Counted from the first letter of the stretch, positions 851 through 37,847 are shown. The stretch: DNA of 64,000 nucleotides from Minisyncoccia bacterium (GCA_049296855.1 JBAQTF010000010.1:108610-172609); one strand, 5' to 3'. The notes: generated from the letters alone by a model not told the origin. Program-made: numbers and translations.

Positions 851-1039
851 TCGGCTTCCAAATTTGGCGAACTCCTTGTTTCGTATTGAAAAATTCTCGT
901 CACCGTACTGTTGTACGTCTCCTCTCATTTTCCAATTCTCAACATCGGATTTCATCCAGATTTGAAACCCTCCAAAACTTTATCTACTTGACAATACGTA
1001 CTTATGTATGTTACGCTTGTGGTTAGAAGGAGACTAACA

Positions 1040-5432: not shown

Positions 5433-6638
5433 ATGGCAGATTCAGCAGTATTTGATCGAAGTAAACCGCACATAAACGTGGGAACAATCGGTCACGTTGA
5501 CCATGGAAAGACTACAATAACAGCAGCTATTTTAACTGTGCTTAGCAGGGCAGGAAACGGTTTTTCAGCTACAGTAAAAGGCGTTGATCAAATTGACTCC
5601 GCTCCTGAGGAAAAAGCACGTGGAATTACTATCGCACTTTCTCACAGTGAATATGCAACTCCTACTCGTCACTATGCTCACGTAGATGCGCCTGGTCACG
5701 CTGACTATATTAAAAACATGATTACTGGTGCCGCTCAAATGGACGGTGCTGTACTCGTAGTAGCAGCAACTGATGGTGTGATGCCTCAAACAAGAGAACA
5801 CGTTCTACTTGCAAAACAAGTTGGAGTTCCAAAAATAATTGTATTTCTAAACAAATGCGACATGGTACCTGACAAAGAACTTATTGATTTGGTTGAGGAG
5901 GAAGTTCGAGAACTCCTTACAAAACAAGGCTTTGATGGTGCAAACGTTCCTATTATTCGAGGTTCAGGATTGAAGGCTCTTGAGTCAAAAGATAACTCTG
6001 ATGAATGGGCAAAGAAAATTCTTGAACTTGCAAACGCGCTTGATACATATTTCCCAATTCCAGAGCGAGATTTAGAGAAACCATTTCTTATGCCAGTTGA
6101 AGATATATTCTCAATCGAAGGACGAGGTACTGTAGTAACAGGACGTATTGAAAGAGGAGTCGTAAAAGTCGGTGAAGAAATTGAATGTATTGGTTTGAAA
6201 GATACACAAAAATACACAGTTACTGGTATTGAAATGTTCAACAAATCACTTGACCAAGGTCAAGCTGGAGACAACGCCGGAATATTGCTTCGAGGTGCAA
6301 AGAAAGAAGAAATTCACCGAGGACAAGTTCTTGCAAAACCAAAAACTGTAACTCCTCACACAGAGTTCACAGCTGAAGTCTACATTCTAAAAAAAGAGGA
6401 AGGTGGACGACACACGCCATTCTTCTCTGGTTACAAGCCACAATTCTACATCCGAACCACAGACGTTACAGGAGATGTGACTCTAAACGACGGAGTAGAA
6501 ATGGTTATGCCAGGAGACACAGTTACTTTCAAAGTAAAACTTGTTGCTCCAGTTGCGCTTGAAGATAAGACTAGATTTGCTATCCGAGAGGGGGGAAAGA
6601 CAGTCGGCGCCGGCGTCGTCACCAAAATAATCGCTTAG
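5433..6638 (+). CDS. tuf: elongation factor Tu
   Basis: It has the GHVDHGKTT motif and the full EF-Tu architecture. Confidence 0.95.
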
Positions 6639-6791
6639 AGAACTTCCAAATCTGGCGAATTTCTGTGTTCTCGGTTTTACTTACTCCACGCGCAGTACTC
6701 TAGTACAGCTTGGTCGCAAGCAAAACCTACGAACTTCGAAATTCATCTAGATTGTTAGAGTTTTTGTTACTATCACTTGCGGAGGAGATAC

Positions 6792-6983
6792 ATGTCTCAA
6801 GATCCAGTTTCGACACAGTCAGAAACAGCGAAGAAAAAGAAAGATCCGATCGATGTTCTGCGAGAACATATGGTTGGTGTCCAAGCATACGGGTATTCTT
6901 GGATGCATCCATCTGATATTGTGAGGGCAATCGATCAAGCAAAAAATGGAACACTGGGCCCATTCAAGCCAAATTTTTCGTAG
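6792..6983 (+). CDS. hypothetical small protein (64 aa)
   Basis: GGAGG lies 6 nt upstream of the ATG. A long hairpin terminator follows immediately at 6984-7035. Confidence 0.4.
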   Translation: MSQDPVSTQSETAKKKKDPIDVLREHMVGVQAYGYSWMHPSDIVRAIDQAKNGTLGPFKPNFS

Positions 6984-7035
6984 TCGCCTCGGGGGGAAAC
7001 CAAATCGGTTTCTCTCCGAGGCGGTTTTCTTTAAC
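6984..7035 (+). terminator. rho-independent terminator
   Basis: The outer stem cgcctcgg...ccgaggcg encloses a nested stem ggaaacc/ggtttc, and the tail is gttttctttaac. Confidence 0.6.
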
Positions 7036-7073
7036 TAAATACTTGACCCCCGAACTAAAATTTAGTTCGGGGG

Positions 7074-7102
7074 TTGAATAAAAAAACATTATCTGCTAGT
7101 AT
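7074..7102 (+). promoter_or_regulatory. promoter TTGAAT-N17-TAGTAT upstream of rpsJ
   Basis: The -35 is at 7074-7079 and the -10 TAGTAT is at 7097-7102, preceded by tctgc. The same tctgcTAGTAT motif recurs at 7881-7892 and 14619-14629. Confidence 0.55.
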
Positions 7103-7525: not shown

Positions 7526-7552
7526 AAACAACTTCGAAAGAAGTTGTTTTTA
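7524..7552 (+). terminator. rho-independent terminator after rpsJ
   Basis: The hairpin aaaaacaacttc-gaaa-gaagttgttttt has a GNRA-like loop. Confidence 0.55.
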
Positions 7553-7834
7553 TTAGATTATGTTGTTATTCTAAAGCTTTGGGGGTGTTCTGTGAGAACT
7601 GAAGTCATTTGTAGCAAGAATCCAAATCTTAAGATCGGCAAAATCTACCGGGGTCTAGACAGTGGACCGTGGAAGTATGGACCGTTACCCAATCAATGTT
7701 TTATGGTGATAAGTAAAAGTACCGCCGAAGCATGGATTGAATGCAATGTAGCTTGGGGTGGACCTCGCGACCATTTTGAAATGCTTGTCGATATCAATGG
7801 TCCATGGTTCTACTACGAGATTCAAACGGACTGA
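7544..7834 (+). CDS. hypothetical small Cys/Trp-rich protein (about 80-96 aa; likely GTG start at 7591)
   Basis: The ORF lies between S10 and L3. GGGGGT sits 5 nt upstream of the GTG at 7591, and the local GC is higher than the surroundings. Confidence 0.3.
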   Translation: MFLLDYVVILKLWGCSVRTEVICSKNPNLKIGKIYRGLDSGPWKYGPLPNQCFMVISKSTAEAWIECNVAWGGPRDHFEMLVDINGPWFYYEIQTD

Positions 7835-8629: not shown

Positions 8630-9349
8630 ATGGAAAAGAAAGTAGTAAAAAAGAATACAAAAACTGACCATCTTATTCCGAACGCTTTAGAAGCAACAGT
8701 TTATAACCAAGAAGGAAAAGAGTCTGGAAAAATAAAAATTCCAGAAAATGTTTTTGGTCTAAGATGGAATGCTGACTTAGTTCACCAGGTAGTTGTTTCT
8801 ATGGAATCAGGTGCTAGAACAAACGTGGCTCATACAAAAAACCGTGGAGAAGTATCTGGAGGTGGAAAAAAACCATGGCAACAAAAGGGAACCGGTCGCG
8901 CACGACACGGCTCAACTCGTTCACCAATATGGCGACACGGAGGAGTTACTCATGGTCCTAGAAATGACAAAAGCTACGAGAAAAAAATAAATAAGAAGAT
9001 GAAAGCAAAGGCTTTATATACTATTCTTTCAGCAAAATACAAAAAAGGTGAAGTTATGTTTGTTGATGACATATCACTTCGAGTTATCAAGACAAAAAAT
9101 GCACTAGGAGTTCTCTCAAATCTTTCAAAAGTAAAAGGTTTTAACGACTTACTATCAAAACGAAAAAATTCTGCTTATATAAATCTTGCTTCAAAAGACA
9201 TCACTACCGAGAAGAGTTTCCGAAATTTTGGAAACTTAGAGGTTGATGAGATTCGAAACATGAACCCCTTAGACCTTATGAAATATAAATACGTTATTAT
9301 TTCAGACGGAGTTAAAGGTCTGCCACAAATCTCTGAAAAATTAAACTAA
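8630..9349 (+). CDS. rplD: 50S ribosomal protein L4
   Basis: It carries the GGGKKPWQQKGTGRARHGS motif. Confidence 0.9.
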   Translation: MEKKVVKKNTKTDHLIPNALEATVYNQEGKESGKIKIPENVFGLRWNADLVHQVVVSMESGARTNVAHTKNRGEVSGGGKKPWQQKGTGRARHGSTRSPIWRHGGVTHGPRNDKSYEKKINKKMKAKALYTILSAKYKKGEVMFVDDISLRVIKTKNALGVLSNLSKVKGFNDLLSKRKNSAYINLASKDITTEKSFRNFGNLEVDEIRNMNPLDLMKYKYVIISDGVKGLPQISEKLN

Positions 9350-10494: not shown

Positions 10495-10571
10495 TTTCGG
10501 TCTTTTCGCTCTATAAACTAAGAAACTCTTCAAGGTTCGACCTTGAAGTAGCAACGATGATATGCCTGATT

Positions 10572-10600
10572 GACATTCCTCTGGGTTTTGTATAGTATAA
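10572..10600 (+). promoter_or_regulatory. strong promoter TTGACA-N17-TAGTAT in the rplB-rpsS intergenic region
   Basis: The -35 TTGACA is at 10572-10577, the spacer is 17 nt, and the -10 TAGTAT is at 10595-10600. Confidence 0.55.
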
Positions 10601-10606
10601 ACGCCA

Positions 10607-10685
10607 CTAAGGCTATGAGCCTTTTTACATTCTGTTTGCGGTATTAGGTAAGTCAGTACCACTAACGATGTGGTTTTTGTTTTGA
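10607..10685 (+). ncRNA. candidate small RNA or leader transcript (about 80 nt)
   Basis: It starts just after the promoter above and ends at the hairpin ccac-taacgat-gtgg (10661-10675), which is followed by tttttgtttt. It contains no ORF. Confidence 0.3.
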
Positions 10686-10828
10686 CAAATAGGCAAAATG
10701 AATTCATCTGCGTTGTTGCTGTTCAATTTTGTTCATTCACCTTACTTTTGTAAGGCTTAATCACAAAATCTCCAGCACCTAGCATCTGAATCCATTTAGC
10801 CAATTTGTCTAAGTAGACAAATTAAAAA

Positions 10829-13586: not shown

Positions 13587-13835
13587 ATGAAAATTAAAAA
13601 AGACGACAAAGTAATAGTGCTGACAGGCAAAGACAAAGGTAAAACTGGAGTCGTGTCCAAAGCTTTTCCAAAAGAAAACAGAGTCATTGTTTCTGGTATA
13701 AACGTATTAAAAGTACACCAAAAACCAAGACGATCTGGTGAGAAAGGACAGATCATAGATAAAGCAATGCCGATACACGTATCAAACGTTAAATTATCGG
13801 AGAAAAAGACAAAACAGAAACCAAAGGCAAATTAA
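13587..13835 (+). CDS. rplX: 50S ribosomal protein L24
   Basis: It has an L24 KOW motif. Confidence 0.85.
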
Positions 13836-14600: not shown

Positions 14601-14629
14601 TTGACTTTCTGTATTCATATTGCTAGTAT
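14601..14629 (+). promoter_or_regulatory. promoter TTGACT-N17-TAGTAT upstream of rpsN
   Basis: The -35 is at 14601-14606 and the -10 TAGTAT is at 14624-14629, preceded by ttgc. Confidence 0.55.
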
Positions 14630-14664
14630 TACCCTCGAGCTTCAAGGCTCTATTTTTAATAGAA

Positions 14665-14850
14665 ATGGCAAAAACATCAGTTAAAGCACGGGCGGCAAAA
14701 AAGCCCAAGTTTAGTACTCGGGCAACAAACCGATGCTTTCGATGTGGACGTGGGAGGGGATTTATGAGAGACTTTGGTCTCTGCCGAATCTGCTTCCGAG
14801 AGTTGGCCAATGAGGGCAAAATCCCAGGAATTAAGAAGAGTTCTTGGTAG
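14665..14850 (+). CDS. rpsN: 30S ribosomal protein S14 type Z (Zn-ribbon form)
   Basis: The protein is 61 aa and has the Cys cluster CFRCGRGRG...CRIC. I chose the internal ATG at 14665. Confidence 0.85.
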
Positions 14851-15043
14851 TCGCTCTGGTCTTTTTGTTCGATTTCTTCGTTTTCAGTTTTGTTTCCTCC
14901 ACGCGCAGTACGATTTGTACAGCTTGGTCACAAACAAAACCTCAAGCCTCGAACTCGAACAAAAATCCGCAGAGCTTGCACAAGTAGTTTCGGTAAGTCT
15001 TTGTTCACTAGAACGAGATACTACCAAGATATAATACAAAAAT

Positions 15044-18783: not shown

Positions 18784-19371
18784 ATGTCTCCACAAACTTT
18801 TGTTTTTATTGGACGGTCTGGTTGCGGAAAAGGAACACAGGCAGATCTGTTAATGAAAAAACTGAAAGAAAAACAGCCAGACGATTTTATTTTTTATCTT
18901 GAAACTGGTCAAAAATTCCGTGATTTCATTTCTGCCTCTGGATATTCAAACCAATTAGCAAAAACAATTCAAGATAAAGGTGCGTTGCAACCGTCTTTTC
19001 TGGCTGTCTGGATTTGGTCAGATATTTTAATAGAAAAATTAAGGAAAGATGACCATCTTTTCATCGATGGAACACCTAGAAAGCTTGGAGAAGCTATAAT
19101 ATTTTTTGAAGCTCTTAAATTTTATTCTCGAAAACCAAATGTTATATATATAAATGTTTCTCGTACATGGTCCGAGGAGCGCCTCTCTGAACGTCATCGA
19201 TCTGATGATATGTTTGCGCTAGTGAAAAAACGACTAGACTGGTTTGATTCAGAAGTTATGCCAGCAGTTGAATATTTCAAAGATAGTTTAGATGTTAATT
19301 TTTTTGATGTAAATGGTGAGAGGTCTATAGAAGATATTCATACCGACATTGTCTCAAAGCTAAAATGGTAA
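18784..19371 (+). CDS. adk: adenylate kinase
   Basis: It has the P-loop GRSGCGKGTQ. Confidence 0.85.
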   Translation: MSPQTFVFIGRSGCGKGTQADLLMKKLKEKQPDDFIFYLETGQKFRDFISASGYSNQLAKTIQDKGALQPSFLAVWIWSDILIEKLRKDDHLFIDGTPRKLGEAIIFFEALKFYSRKPNVIYINVSRTWSEERLSERHRSDDMFALVKKRLDWFDSEVMPAVEYFKDSLDVNFFDVNGERSIEDIHTDIVSKLKW

Positions 19372-19531
19372 AATAGTTGAAATTATCTCATCTGCGTTGT
19401 TGCTAGTTTTATTTTTTCCGTGCGCAGTAGGTTTACTACAGCTTGGTCAAAAATAAAACGTCGCGCCTAGCATCTGAAACAATTTCAACTATTTTACAAG
19501 TACCAAATTTCATGTAATGTAATGATATAAC

Positions 19532-23602: not shown

Positions 23603-24130
23603 TTATGCACGCTCGATAATGATGGATAACCCTTTTGGACTCTTTTTGGCTGGATCAGCCACTTTGTATTCTTCAGTAATAAGCTTTAACACACGTTCCA
23701 TACGTTCTTGTAAGAACTTCATGTCCATGTATTTTGTTCTTCCTGGGAGAAAAAGATCTATTTTGATGCGATTTCCTTCCTTTAACCACTGTGACGCTTT
23801 CTTGGCTTTAAGCTCTAAATCGTGGTCTCCGGTGCCTACTTTTACCTGTATATTCTTAACTTCTACTATATGAGCCTTGGTTTTAGCCACCTTTAGCTTC
23901 TTATTTTCAGCATACTGAAATTTACCATAATCCATGATTTTTGCAACCGGTGGATTAGCTTTTGGCGATATTTCGATGAGATCTAGTCCAGTCTCTCTAG
24001 CTTTGTCCAAGGCAACTTTAAAGGAGACAACCCCGAGATTTGTACCATCTTCCATAATGACACGAAGTTCAGGTGCTGTTATTTGGTTATTTATTCTTAT
24101 ATGTGTAGACAAAATTTTTAGAAATCCCAT
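23603..24130 (-). CDS. infC: translation initiation factor IF-3
   Basis: The IF3 N- and C-domains are recognisable. The true start may be a non-ATG codon. Confidence 0.85.
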   Translation of the reverse strand: MGFLKILSTHIRINNQITAPELRVIMEDGTNLGVVSFKVALDKARETGLDLIEISPKANPPVAKIMDYGKFQYAENKKLKVAKTKAHIVEVKNIQVKVGTGDHDLELKAKKASQWLKEGNRIKIDLFLPGRTKYMDMKFLQERMERVLKLITEEYKVADPAKKSPKGLSIIIERA

Positions 24131-24302
24131 ATTCGGCCAATCTCATCGTCTAAAATTTAGAAAACATCTTCACCATACTATGCGTATGTCTCAGATGATT
24201 TTCCAAATTTTATACATGATCTTGTCTCAAATCTGAAATTTCTTTATTAAGCTTATAATAATGTGAGGAAAATATAGCACGTTTTCCCTACGTACGCAAT
24301 TA

Positions 24303-24941: not shown

Positions 24942-25025
24942 AAAAAGAAGTATAACGCAGGAGACGGATTAACCAGTTGTTTATTACAAAACAAAAACTC
25001 CTATTCGGGAGTTTTTGTTAATTTG

Positions 25026-25421
25026 TGGAGAAGGAGAGAATTGAACTCTCGTGCAAATAAGATTTGATAATGTTTCTACACGACGTATTCAATTTAATTT
25101 TCTCGACTTCTATTCTTTAAATTGAAAAAATAAACAGAAGTCCAGTTTTCTTTTTCTCGAAACTAACTCGAAACTAAGTTAGCTTCCAGTCCGATGATAT
25201 ATCAATCACTTACCGTAACAGACTTAGGGTAGTGACCGCTCACTGAGTTTAATCTAAAAGATTAGACGAAAGCGAGAGCAAACTCATTCGCCATAAATGG
25301 TGAACGAACTGCTTTTGCAAAGGTGTTTTTAGCATCTATGCTTTGAAGCCTTTTAAAGAGTTACTCCAGCTCTGTCGTGCACATTGTCAAAGAATTTATC
25401 TGTCTAAACCTGTCATCCCCC
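25026..25421 (-). ncRNA. ssrA: tmRNA (ssrA)
   Basis: On the minus strand the T-arm GAGAG-TTCAATT-CTCTC is followed by CTTCTCCA, giving an acceptor 3' strand and a discriminator A. The 5' end is GGGGGAU, which provides the G3.U pair. A tag reading frame encodes ANEFALAFV* (25262-25291). The gene lies next to smpB. Confidence 0.6.
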
Positions 25422-28280: not shown

Positions 28281-28377
28281 GCCGACATTCATTACGAGTG
28301 TCGGCCTATCGCTTTGTTTATTAATTCATTTTTCATAAAGTATGCTAATTTGTTATAGTTACCTTGTACCAAATCCG

Positions 28378-28451
28378 CCTGTAGCTCAGTTGGTTAGAGC
28401 ATCGAGCTTATACCTCGAGGGTCCCACGTTCGAGTCGTGGCAGGCGGACAA
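28378..28451 (+). tRNA. tRNA-Ile with anticodon UAU
   Basis: The molecule folds as a cloverleaf. The acceptor stem is CCGCCTG/CAGGCGG, the D-arm is GCTC-AGTTGGTTA-GAGC, the anticodon stem-loop is TCGAG-CTTATAC-CTCGA, and the T-arm is CCACG-TTCGAGT-CGTGG. The discriminator is A and CCA is not encoded. Confidence 0.8.
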
Positions 28452-36561: not shown

Positions 36562-36722
36562 TAAAAAATTAAAACAACATTCGAAAACGACACGTTAGAA
36601 CTTTCACAATCTGGATACAGTTCTAGGCGGAAAGGTAAATGGGCAAGGAGACGTACATGTGGTACGTTGACGAGAATATTTGCCTTTCCAACAACGAAAT
36701 GTGCCAGATTTGGAAGTTCTAA

Positions 36723-37847
36723 CTAGAATGGATTCTTGGCTCCGCGGATTTCAAAGTGTAGATGCGTGCCGGTTATCCCCTTAACGCTACCGGAATGTCC
36801 CATTTTACCTATAACTTGTCCTTGCTGTACATGATCACCAACGTTAACTAAAGTTGCGCTTAAATGTCCGTACAGAGTCTGAGTACCATTTCCGTGTTTG
36901 AGTACGATATAAGAACCATAACCACCATTCCATCCAGTTGCTCGAGAAATGATTACATCTCCCTCGGCCGAAGCGAGAATGTTTGAACCGTATGCTGAAG
37001 CAAGATCAACACCGTTGTGGCCGTGAATACCTTGAGTTTTTATACCGCCTATAATAGGTCGCATGTAATAACCAGCATAAACAGGATAGGAGGGACCAGT
37101 TTTACCAACACCACCAGAAGTAGAGCCAGAAATAGTAACCGCTTCACCATCTGGAACAACGATAATATCTCCTATGGCCAATTTATCATCCTTATTTAAA
37201 TTATTATATTGCAAAATTTCATCTAAATCTCCTTTATGAAGTTTAGCTATACTTTGCAGAGTATCACCAGACTTTACGATATGTTGTATCCCAGAAATAG
37301 GGAGAATGACCAGAGTCTGACCGGAAGTTATAGTATTTCCTTTTATATCGTTTGCCCAACGTACAGTATTTACGCTGACACCAAACATTTTGGCTATAGC
37401 AGGTAGTGTATCTCCAGAATGAACTACGTAGACACTAATCTGATCTTCGTCTAGTGATTTCATCAATGAAGTAGGTGGAGGTACAGTTTCTGGAGAAAGA
37501 GATGTCCCTTCAACAATAGCTAACTCTCCAGTCGAAGTCGCACCTTGACCAGGAGAATTGACTGCCTGAAGTAAAAACATGTTTTGAGAATTTAAAACTA
37601 CCTCTTCAGCCTGTACCTTTTCTGTACAAAAAATCCAAAGAAAACATGTGGTAGAACCCTTAGCACTTACTGTATTAGGCATAAAAATAGACACAAATAA
37701 AACAGGCAAAACCACAGTGTTGCAAAGTAGAAAATTACATATGTTCACCACAGAAAGGCGAGATCCCACGTGACGGCATTTAACAATAAACGCCCTACCC
37801 ATGCTTTTAAGACCTGTCCAGAACAGTGGATCTTGTAGTAGACCCAA
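36723..37847 (-). CDS. LysM-domain M23 peptidoglycan endopeptidase
   Basis: It has two LysM motifs and the M23 zinc motif HxxxD...HLHFE. The start is uncertain. Confidence 0.8.
   Translation of the reverse strand: MGLLQDPLFWTGLKSMGRAFIVKCRHVGSRLSVVNICNFLLCNTVVLPVLFVSIFMPNTVSAKGSTTCFLWIFCTEKVQAEEVVLNSQNMFLLQAVNSPGQGATSTGELAIVEGTSLSPETVPPPTSLMKSLDEDQISVYVVHSGDTLPAIAKMFGVSVNTVRWANDIKGNTITSGQTLVILPISGIQHIVKSGDTLQSIAKLHKGDLDEILQYNNLNKDDKLAIGDIIVVPDGEAVTISGSTSGGVGKTGPSYPVYAGYYMRPIIGGIKTQGIHGHNGVDLASAYGSNILASAEGDVIISRATGWNGGYGSYIVLKHGNGTQTLYGHLSATLVNVGDHVQQGQVIGKMGHSGSVKGITGTHLHFEIRGAKNPF

Follow-up and report, generated by a model that had tools for sequence, protein, structure and literature searches.

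The hairpin core that a first-pass annotation had noted three times in the 64,000-nt stretch of Minisyncoccia DNA analyzed here (the window) is the apical hairpin of one subfamily of a larger repeat located next to stop codons. On balance, we favor the view that this repeat represents a lineage-specific (Paceibacteria/Minisyncoccia, Patescibacteria) family of non-coding, dispersed palindromic elements of approx. 125 to 130 nt, similar to REPs and MITEs, which apparently has not been described so far. The striking feature of the family is the exact abutment of stop codons in a single orientation; neither this abutment nor the strong sense bias is explained by known REP or MITE biology.

Patescibacteria (CPR) are uncultivated and have tiny genomes, and their post-transcriptional biology and mobile DNA are almost unknown. 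The literature searched, which gave partial coverage, contained no description of such repeats in CPR bacteria, and no family in Rfam 15 matched the repeat at gathering or permissive thresholds. E-value based Rfam scans of copies A, B, and C (see Table 1) and of the copy at 36.6 kb returned only hairpin noise of the miRNA/snoRNA type far below threshold, and at gathering thresholds the whole window matched tmRNA and tRNA only. The tmRNA gene in the window is located on the minus strand (25023-25420; tag AKNTFAKAVRSPFMANEFALAFV), and the window also contains a tRNA-Ile gene with the unusual anticodon UAU (28375-28449).

The three cores all lie on the plus strand at the positions where the annotation had reported them (Table 1). 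Their recurrence is not random, as the pattern GCGCAGTAS-N5-STACAGCTTGGTC, which matches copies B and C, was not found in any of 100 shuffles; the core of copy A departs from this pattern only by its 4-nt loop, and ACAGCTTGGTC occurs exactly three times in the window. All three copies directly follow a stop codon (stop-to-core distances of 51, 52, and 50 nt for copies A, B, and C, respectively), and Pfam agreed with the gene contexts inferred in the annotation (i.e., tuf, rpsN/S14, rpsH/S8, adk, and map). The similarity noted in the flanks of copies A and B proved genuine and belongs to a far longer hairpin; the element size of 31 to 105 nt given previously was thus replaced by the full length of approx. 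125 to 130 nt obtained by folding. The number of copies was revised as well: the three cores stand, but the window holds seven family members with at least three different apical cores, as four divergent members have to be added. Three divergent copies were found with a first covariance model (R1), and a model built from three subfamilies (R2) recovered all six window copies as well as the seventh member.

Table 1. Coordinates and properties of the seven repeat family members in the 64,000-nt window (scores in bits; R1 and R2, covariance models)
Member	Coordinates	Strand	Gene context	Arms or basal helix	Apical core	Score	Fold
Member after rpsG (S7)	853..979	+	S7 by Pfam; rpsG stop TAA 848-850	Type I, CTTCCAAATTTGG / CCAGATTTGAAAC	Subfamily 2, CTCGTCACCGTAC-TGTT-GTACGTCTCC at 896-922	R1 29.8 (hit 862-967); R2 94.6	Rod
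Copy A	6639..6770	+	tuf 5433-6638, stop TAG 6636-6638	Type I	Subfamily 1, 6686-6715	103.7	Rod from 1 nt past stop
Divergent member	10689..10814	+	rplB/rpsS gap; no long-ORF stop adjoining		Subfamily 3, TTCATTCACCTTAC-TTTT-GTAAGGCTTAATCAC	R1 31.1 (hit 10698-10802); R2 76.5	-39.2 kcal/mol
Copy B	14851..14983	+	rpsN (S14) 14620-14850, stop TAG 14848-14850; upstream of rpsH/S8	Type II, GCTCTGG-TCTTTTTG / CAAAAA-TCC-GCAGAGC	Subfamily 1, 14899-14929	126.4	Rod from 3 nt past stop
Copy C	19368..19502	+	Between adk and map; adk stop TAA 19369-19371	Perfect 14-bp basal helix AAATAGTTGAAATT / AATTTCAACTATTT from third base of adk TAA	Subfamily 1, 19418-19448	100	Helix continues through stop codon to G19368
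Divergent seventh member	24122..24250	+	Just upstream of infC; antisense to both flanking minus-strand genes			R1 15.2 (weak); R2 44.7 (E 2.6e-8; outside training set)	Rod
Minus-strand member	36591..36722	-	Directly after stop 36723-36725 of minus-strand LysM/M23 peptidase gene; between convergent genes	Type I, TTAGAACTTCCAAATCTGG / CCAGATTGTGAAAGTTCTAA	Subfamily 2	R2 109.5 (R1 hit 36603-36709)	

All copies fold to one rod architecture. The basal helix comprises 15 to 20 bp and starts 0 to 5 nt after the stop codon or includes it, i.e., its first bases are the stop codon itself or are located directly 3' of it. Further in, conserved middle blocks (GGCGmATTTCTTyGTTGC ... GCGCCTCGAAyTnCATCC) are followed by a variable AU-rich helix and by an apical hairpin, which is swappable and occurs in at least three types, i.e., CCACGCGCAGTAS-loop-STACAGCTTGGTC in subfamily 1 (the core of the annotation), CTCGTCAmCGTAC...GTACGTCTCC in subfamily 2, and GTTCGTCACCTTAy...rTAAGGCTTCTC in subfamily 3. 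The middle blocks are common to all subfamilies, and arms are often shared between them; type I arms (TA[A/G]AACTTCCAAATyTGGCG ... CCArATTTGAAAGTTyTA) as well as type II arms are found repeatedly in different genomes and subfamilies. Many copies have unique outer helices, and identity averages 44% in the arms as compared to 70% in the interior. In the folds of copies A, B, and C, the apex consists of a GUAC/GUAC or GUAG/CUAC stem, an A.A mismatch, GC/GC, and CCA/UGG. The AU-rich helix varies yet remains complementary (GUUUUGUUU/AAACAAAAC in copy B and GUUUUAUUUUU/AAAAAUAAAAC in copy C), and more helices reach down to the stop codon, giving full rods of -37 to -43 kcal/mol.

Structure statistics were calculated for 65 distinct copies, using 161 aligned columns and a consensus of 35 pairs. 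Standard pairs represented 90.7% of cells, as compared to 71.2% in column shuffles (0 of 500 shuffles reached the observed value) and 31 to 44% with slid partners. Changes on both sides were observed for 25 of the 35 pairs, with a covariation score of 0.488 as compared to 0.153 for the control, and some pairs showed four to five pair types with almost no broken cells (e.g., columns 15/138, with AU 33, UA 16, GC 9, CG 6, and GU 1). This pattern is that of a helix and not that of a coding sequence. The family-wide covariation also supports the hairpin with a compensatory change that had been proposed from three copies; the double change from GTAC/GTAC to GTAG/CTAC in copy C is real, with C-G found in 43 and G-C in 22 of the 65 copies. 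As the search pattern determined the core columns, invariance in these columns is uninformative, and core variation is visible only in model-found copies. Core compensation was observed in L070 2130-2258 (C-G to G-C and C-G to U-A) and in L005 1456-1563, where GCA/AGC is replaced by AAU/AUU; the latter copy is the exception to the retention of the A.A mismatch, which here has become a U-A pair along with a change of two neighboring G-C pairs to A-U.

A scan for the exact core, using one genome per species, returned 69 loci; 67 of these, from 47 assemblies with up to five loci per assembly, represent real full-length hairpins. The hosts are almost all Patescibacteria/Paceibacteria, including Zambryskibacteria, Taylorbacteria, Nomurabacteria, and Minisyncoccia. 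Model R2 gave 121 matches in 778 kb (seven in the window), and the subfamily-2 core was found at 29 loci in metagenome contigs, with the same properties. The suggestion of a small dispersed repeat family is thus strongly supported, and a random repeat of the kind envisaged in the annotation, i.e., a motif found in only three places and showing no covariation, is not what these genomes contain. Among relatives of the window, which were gathered through S8 homologues, copies were located at the S14/S8 junction and after rpsJ (both in L005), after rplE (L008), and after tuf (L011). The exact-core locus in Hydromonas (L040) was rejected as a chance match with a non-complementary stem. A true hairpin with an exact subfamily-1 core was also found at 2697-2818 of a contig with 51 to 57% GC that was binned as Deltaproteobacteria (L038), adjoining mnmG and toxin-antitoxin genes; this represents either a misbinned GC-rich CPR contig or a sign of transfer. 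IMG/VR viral contigs gave 0 matches to the element, leaving horizontal vehicles without support.

The position of the repeat was defined by the upstream gene. Among the 121 R2 matches, 93 abutted a stop codon on the same strand (16 of these also abutted the stop codon of a convergent gene), 8 abutted a stop codon on the opposite strand only, and 20 abutted neither; sense-only abutment was found for 77 and antisense-only abutment for 8 copies. The 36 matches without the searched core were distributed similarly, with 23 at same-strand stop codons, 3 at opposite-strand stop codons only, and 10 at neither. The repeat hence does not occur equally on both strands or inside genes, which the annotation had named as further signs of a random repeat. 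For core-bearing copies, at least 57 distinct same-strand ORFs (of at least 55 codons) ended 40 to 52 nt before the core, and stop-to-core distances clustered at 45 to 52 nt. The orientation bias also holds for the lone minus-strand gene at 36.7 kb, where the copy is on the minus strand as well; the member at 24122-24250 is an exception to the orientation rule. In L070 (2130-2685), two members in opposite orientation flank an HU gene; one is in sense orientation after the HU stop codon, and the other (2557-2685) is an exception that is located in the promoter region of HU and runs antisense to the RNase Y gene upstream of it. On the downstream side, the neighbor was in tandem for 36 copies, convergent for 13, and absent or far for 9, at distances of approx. 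45 to 1500 nt; in about one third of the tandem cases, the next start was located 12 to 30 nt past the 3' arm. As downstream neighbors and distances vary, the constant partner of the repeat is the upstream gene end and not the downstream start.

The upstream ORFs (n = 59) represented 64 Pfam families, including S7 (6 cases), S14 (4 cases), EF-Tu/EF-G/LepA, L2, DnaB, transketolase, M23 peptidase, KhpA, a mechanosensitive channel, adenylosuccinate synthetase, ribonucleotide reductase, and a tRNA synthetase. The C-termini of upstream ORFs, as read by eye, also suggest GyrB, S18, L5, L6, HU, NusG, and ATP synthase subunit c as further hosts. Genes for translation and other core functions with high expression seem to be over-represented, with counts inflated by orthologous repeats. 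L041 carries a copy at the same M23 peptidase host gene as the 36.6-kb member of the window. The family thus extends beyond the ribosomal-protein operons, in which the annotation had placed its three copies. This range of hosts also bears on the suggestion, made in the annotation, of a cis-regulatory RNA or protein-binding operator, which in this context would be a site for autogenous control by a ribosomal protein. In favor of such an operator or leader, the str/S10/spc cluster contains five of the seven members in the window, and S7 and S14 gene ends are recurrent hosts, but the same element follows GyrB, DnaB, LepA, HU, transketolase, M23 peptidase, and other genes, it sits at gene 3' ends with no fixed distance to a regulated start, and relatives lack it at the same junctions. 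Moreover, 13 of 72 copies (the 36.6-kb copy among them) are located between convergent genes and thus have no downstream gene to regulate. No Rfam ribosomal leader matched the element except the S15 leader, at 12.4 bits (gathering score 39.5; E 0.99) and thus far below threshold. By inspection, the core, which we take to resemble 16S h20/h21, has neither the bulged 3' strand of the S8 site, with its two extra bases, nor the tandem G.A/A.G pairs of a K-turn; a mimic of either was rejected on this basis, and the spread over unrelated genes is decisive. We therefore regard a ribosomal-protein operator as hardly credible.

A factor-independent terminator or attenuator of this lineage could account for a stable hairpin at gene ends, also where these are convergent. 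The 3' flanks, however, contain no T-run, a terminator scan reported no element position, and the element is found inside operons with essential downstream genes (S14/S8 and adk/map). Moreover, canonical terminators are separate from the element; L011 has a GC stem with a T-run after the element, and L005 has one without the element. Termination of transcription thus seems a very improbable role. Promoters were likewise not enriched inside the elements (44 found as compared to 48.8 expected).

Copy B is orthologous to copies in L005/L027, L049, and L056. These S14/S8 copies were 74 to 85% identical to the window copy, as compared to 56 to 72% for the adjacent spacer and approx. 50% for four-fold sites, and their outer helices showed compensatory differences (AATCTACC/GGTAGATT, AATTTAC/GTAAATT, AATTTGC/GCAAATT, and GCTCTG/CAGAGC). 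In several copies, the basal helix extended into the coding sequence, e.g., CAAACGTAAAAAATAGTCT / AGACTATTTTTTACGTTTG in L110 and a perfect helix of 20 bp in L087; between L111 and its orthologue L085, which differ in their last codons, the 3' arm has changed accordingly. Helices that continue from the stop codon into the upstream ORF for 7 nt or more were observed in 7 copies, as compared to 0.5 expected by permutation (maximum of 4 in 500 permutations). The more general claim that the stop codon is always paired was rejected, as pairing of all three stop bases (62 observed, 57.6 permuted) was not above background in these AT-rich flanks. Wobble pairs were also rejected as evidence for a sense RNA; a count of 201 as compared to 73, apparently in favor of the sense strand, was biased by the sense-derived structure and was withdrawn, and on the union of sense- and antisense-derived pairs, G.U and A.C wobble pairs were equally frequent (133 each), with no strand preference. 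The antisense strand folded more stably in 63 of 65 copies. Given the equal wobble and the more stable antisense fold, sense-RNA activity is deduced from the orientation bias only.

These observations are also relevant to a host cis-acting RNA coupled to translation termination, in which the terminating ribosome would melt the basal helix that contains the stop codon, and in some cases also the last codons, and thereby decide between the full rod (cleaved or protected if untranslated) and an open form, or hand the ribosome to a downstream start that the rod keeps close by. The start of the basal helix at or including the stop codon in most copies, its extension by up to 13 to 17 nt into the coding end above permutation (L087, L110, and L111), the covariation of the 3' arm with synonymous or coding changes (L085 and L111), the strong sense bias, the conservation above four-fold sites, and the tandem cases with a start close behind the 3' arm are all consistent with such a role. 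On the other hand, the element is dispensable, as close relatives have the same junctions without it; many copies are convergent or far from any downstream gene; the apical cores are interchangeable; and the antisense exceptions (window 24122-24250 and L070 2557-2685), the lack of wobble asymmetry for a sense RNA, and stop codon pairing at background level also argue against it. We consider a termination-coupled host RNA unlikely, but far from negligible.

Several observations are in line with mobility of the repeat. The tuf downstream site is filled in the window and in L011 and empty in L005, and the S14/S8 site is filled in the window and in L005 and empty in L011. Similarly, adk and map are separated by 160 nt in the window, where the gap contains copy C, as compared to 13 nt in both L005 and L011 and 1 nt in L008. 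The family hence shows the insertion polymorphism typical of MITEs, and it shares with these the small size (approx. 100 to 400 bp in MITEs), the multiple copies, and the non-coding nature. Depending on the genome, either subfamily 1 or subfamily 2 is found at the ends of the S7, LepA, and GyrB genes, and the ends of the genes for a 104-aa protein (...DLKL) and for the M23 peptidase also vary in subfamily or arm type between genomes. Between non-orthologous copies (L021/L059 and L037/L071), interiors of 85 nt were 98 to 100% identical, whereas the arms were only 35 to 57% identical, and two copies within one genome (L037, L042) have genome-specific interior variants in common. In L005, the stop codons of secY and rplE are directly followed by truncated relics (13608-13690 and 8901-8930); in one of these, type I arms are present but most of the interior has been lost, and the other is reduced to a lone left arm. 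A further relic, probably a truncated type II arm (TAATTTCGGTCTTTTCGCTC), follows directly after the rplB stop codon in the rplB/rpsS gap of the window (10495-10690). The same gap contains a promoter-like sequence (TTGACA-17-TAGTAT, 10570-10598) and small terminator-like hairpins (10609-10623 and 10658-10674).

Most copies have TA(A/G) at their start and (T/C)TA at their end; as TA is palindromic and merges with the helix, any TA target duplication would be masked. By manual count, the base after the 3' TA was A or G in approx. 24 of 35 copies, a share that does not clearly exceed the one expected from composition. The empty tuf site of L005 (AACTTTAAAAAGTT) hints that the outer helix may pre-exist in the target. 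Some observations weigh against a mobile repeat. The outermost helix is the most variable part, which is atypical for MITEs, with type I and type II arms each forming a conserved set; and the conservation above four-fold sites together with covariation in the orthologous series would equally fit an RNA function selected by the host. No transposase or partner protein was identified among the handful of neighboring ORFs scanned, and no full-length autonomous element was seen.

Under the mobile, REP/MITE-like reading that we favor, we infer that a trans-acting enzyme, by recognizing the folded single strand or the conserved arms, would help, or would have helped, the element to spread in the form of DNA, and that the element would settle preferentially at gene 3' ends in sense orientation. 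The complementarity of the arms would be kept by selection or by palindrome-correcting replication; the covariation itself could come from a DNA-level process, i.e., recognition of a single-strand hairpin or replication template switching that corrects quasi-palindromes. Once inserted, the element would be co-transcribed with the upstream gene and form a rod of approx. -40 kcal/mol in the 3' UTR or intercistronic RNA. We infer that this rod most plausibly would either block 3' exonucleases or serve as a site of double-strand-specific processing, which would give the upstream and downstream parts of the message different fates. The compact fold would keep the upstream stop codon near the downstream start, which may explain why operons tolerate the element.

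The junctions used by the repeat also contain other inserts. In relatives, the rplE/rpsN-rpsH junction within the spc operon carries different inserted genes (L005 9012-9437, L008 8976-9632, and L011 9294-9647), which include ORFs of 141 and 218 aa without known function and a response-regulator receiver domain; in this lineage, ribosomal-protein operons thus tolerate insertions at junctions that the repeat also uses. In the window, a 63-aa ORF (6792-6983) is inserted directly after copy A between tuf and rpsJ; it has a strong ribosome-binding site (GGAGGAG), lacks a Pfam match, and is followed by two strong terminator-like hairpins (6982-7026 and 7043-7077); the first hairpin begins at the stop codon of this ORF, and its stem (GTCGCCTCGG/CCGAGGCGG) resembles a type II arm. 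Two small hydrophobic ORFs of 69 and 65 aa (1004-1213 and 1284-1481) are located downstream of the S7 copy in the 725-nt rpsG/fusA gap. Between rpsJ and rplC, the window contains a 96-aa ORF with no Pfam match (7544-7834), and relatives contain other unknown ORFs at this site (L006 1680-2039, L008 517-963, and L011 1857-2423).

A structure-specific DNA recombination site analogous to integron attC, with cassettes inserted downstream of resident genes, would be in line with small ORFs of this kind following some copies within conserved operons (window 6792-6983 and 1004-1481, L006 1680-2039, and L008 8976-9632), with an attC-sized imperfect palindrome placed right after ORFs in fixed orientation, and with the folding of both strands, the bottom strand being more stable. 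However, the RYYYAAC and GTTRRRY end boxes are absent, conservation is highest in the center and lowest at the ends, opposite to the gradient of attC, the copies follow housekeeping genes of the core genome rather than cassettes, and the next conserved gene directly follows many copies (e.g., copies B and C). No integrase was seen beside the copies in a non-systematic look. Overall, an attC-like site appears improbable.

Recognition of the family explains the odd gaps of 150 to 200 nt in the otherwise compact ribosomal-protein operons of these MAGs and marks small ORFs predicted across the repeats as spurious. The family can now be annotated with a covariance model and with sequence patterns, and its insertion polymorphisms may serve as strain markers. 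As the repeat is found at the ends of highly expressed core genes, it represents a handle either on the formation and processing of mRNA 3' ends or on insertion that targets stop codons in this lineage. A bolder view, which we hold only tentatively and judge rather unlikely, is that the family, rather than being a passive repeat, is either a new mobile element that homes to ORF ends through transcription or translation termination, or an RNA module that senses termination. Homing, if true, would explain the sense orientation and exact stop codon abutment across dozens of unrelated genes; a sensing module, if true, would mean that the terminating ribosome, by opening the basal helix with the stop codon, controls message processing or the hand-over to the next cistron.

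Among known systems, the REP, BIME, and REPIN sequences of Enterobacteria and Pseudomonas also are multi-copy extragenic imperfect palindromes that are located in 3' UTRs, intercistronic regions, or between convergent genes, are co-transcribed as hairpins, and, like the repeat described here, are largely excluded from promoter regions. REPs stabilize upstream mRNA against 3' exonucleases, and if located within approx. 15 nt of a stop codon, they influence how the preceding gene is translated; REPINs are hairpins of approx. 100 nt. In contrast to REPs, the repeat has, by inspection of the alignment, no conserved 5' GTAG-type tetranucleotide at the foot of the hairpin, its best conserved part within a subfamily is the apical region and not the arm, its sense bias is strict (77 as compared to 8 copies), and its helix begins at the stop codon itself. 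REPs are accompanied by RAYT (Y1 HUH) transposases; no RAYT partner of the repeat was seen in a non-systematic look. The Correia/NEMIS elements of Neisseria and the ERIC/IRU elements of Enterobacteria and Yersinia represent MITEs with a similar range of properties, i.e., they are transcribed intergenic imperfect palindromes of 100 to 155 nt with several subtypes, presence/absence polymorphism, and truncated copies. Once transcribed, their hairpins are cleaved by RNase III or RNase E, which changes the stability of the flanking mRNA; insertion of these elements takes place at TA. The repeat described here differs from them by its termini, which comprise two or more conserved types in addition to many unique ones, by far stricter orientation and stop codon abutment, and by its occurrence in another phylum, with no sequence similarity detected.

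Integron attC sites share with the repeat the structured imperfect palindrome (approx. 60 to 140 nt) right after an ORF in fixed orientation and a structure that partly outlasts sequence, but the repeat lacks R''/R' boxes, has ends of the form TA(A/G)AACTTCC... or TAGTCGCTCTGG..., is most conserved in its center, and follows core host genes. In functional terms only, the RNase III hairpins of phage T7 early mRNA can also be compared, as they are long intercistronic hairpins with conserved internal loops. T7 sites, in contrast to the repeat, are not dispersed repeats of a cellular genome; they provide a model for a rod that separates or stabilizes segments of a message.
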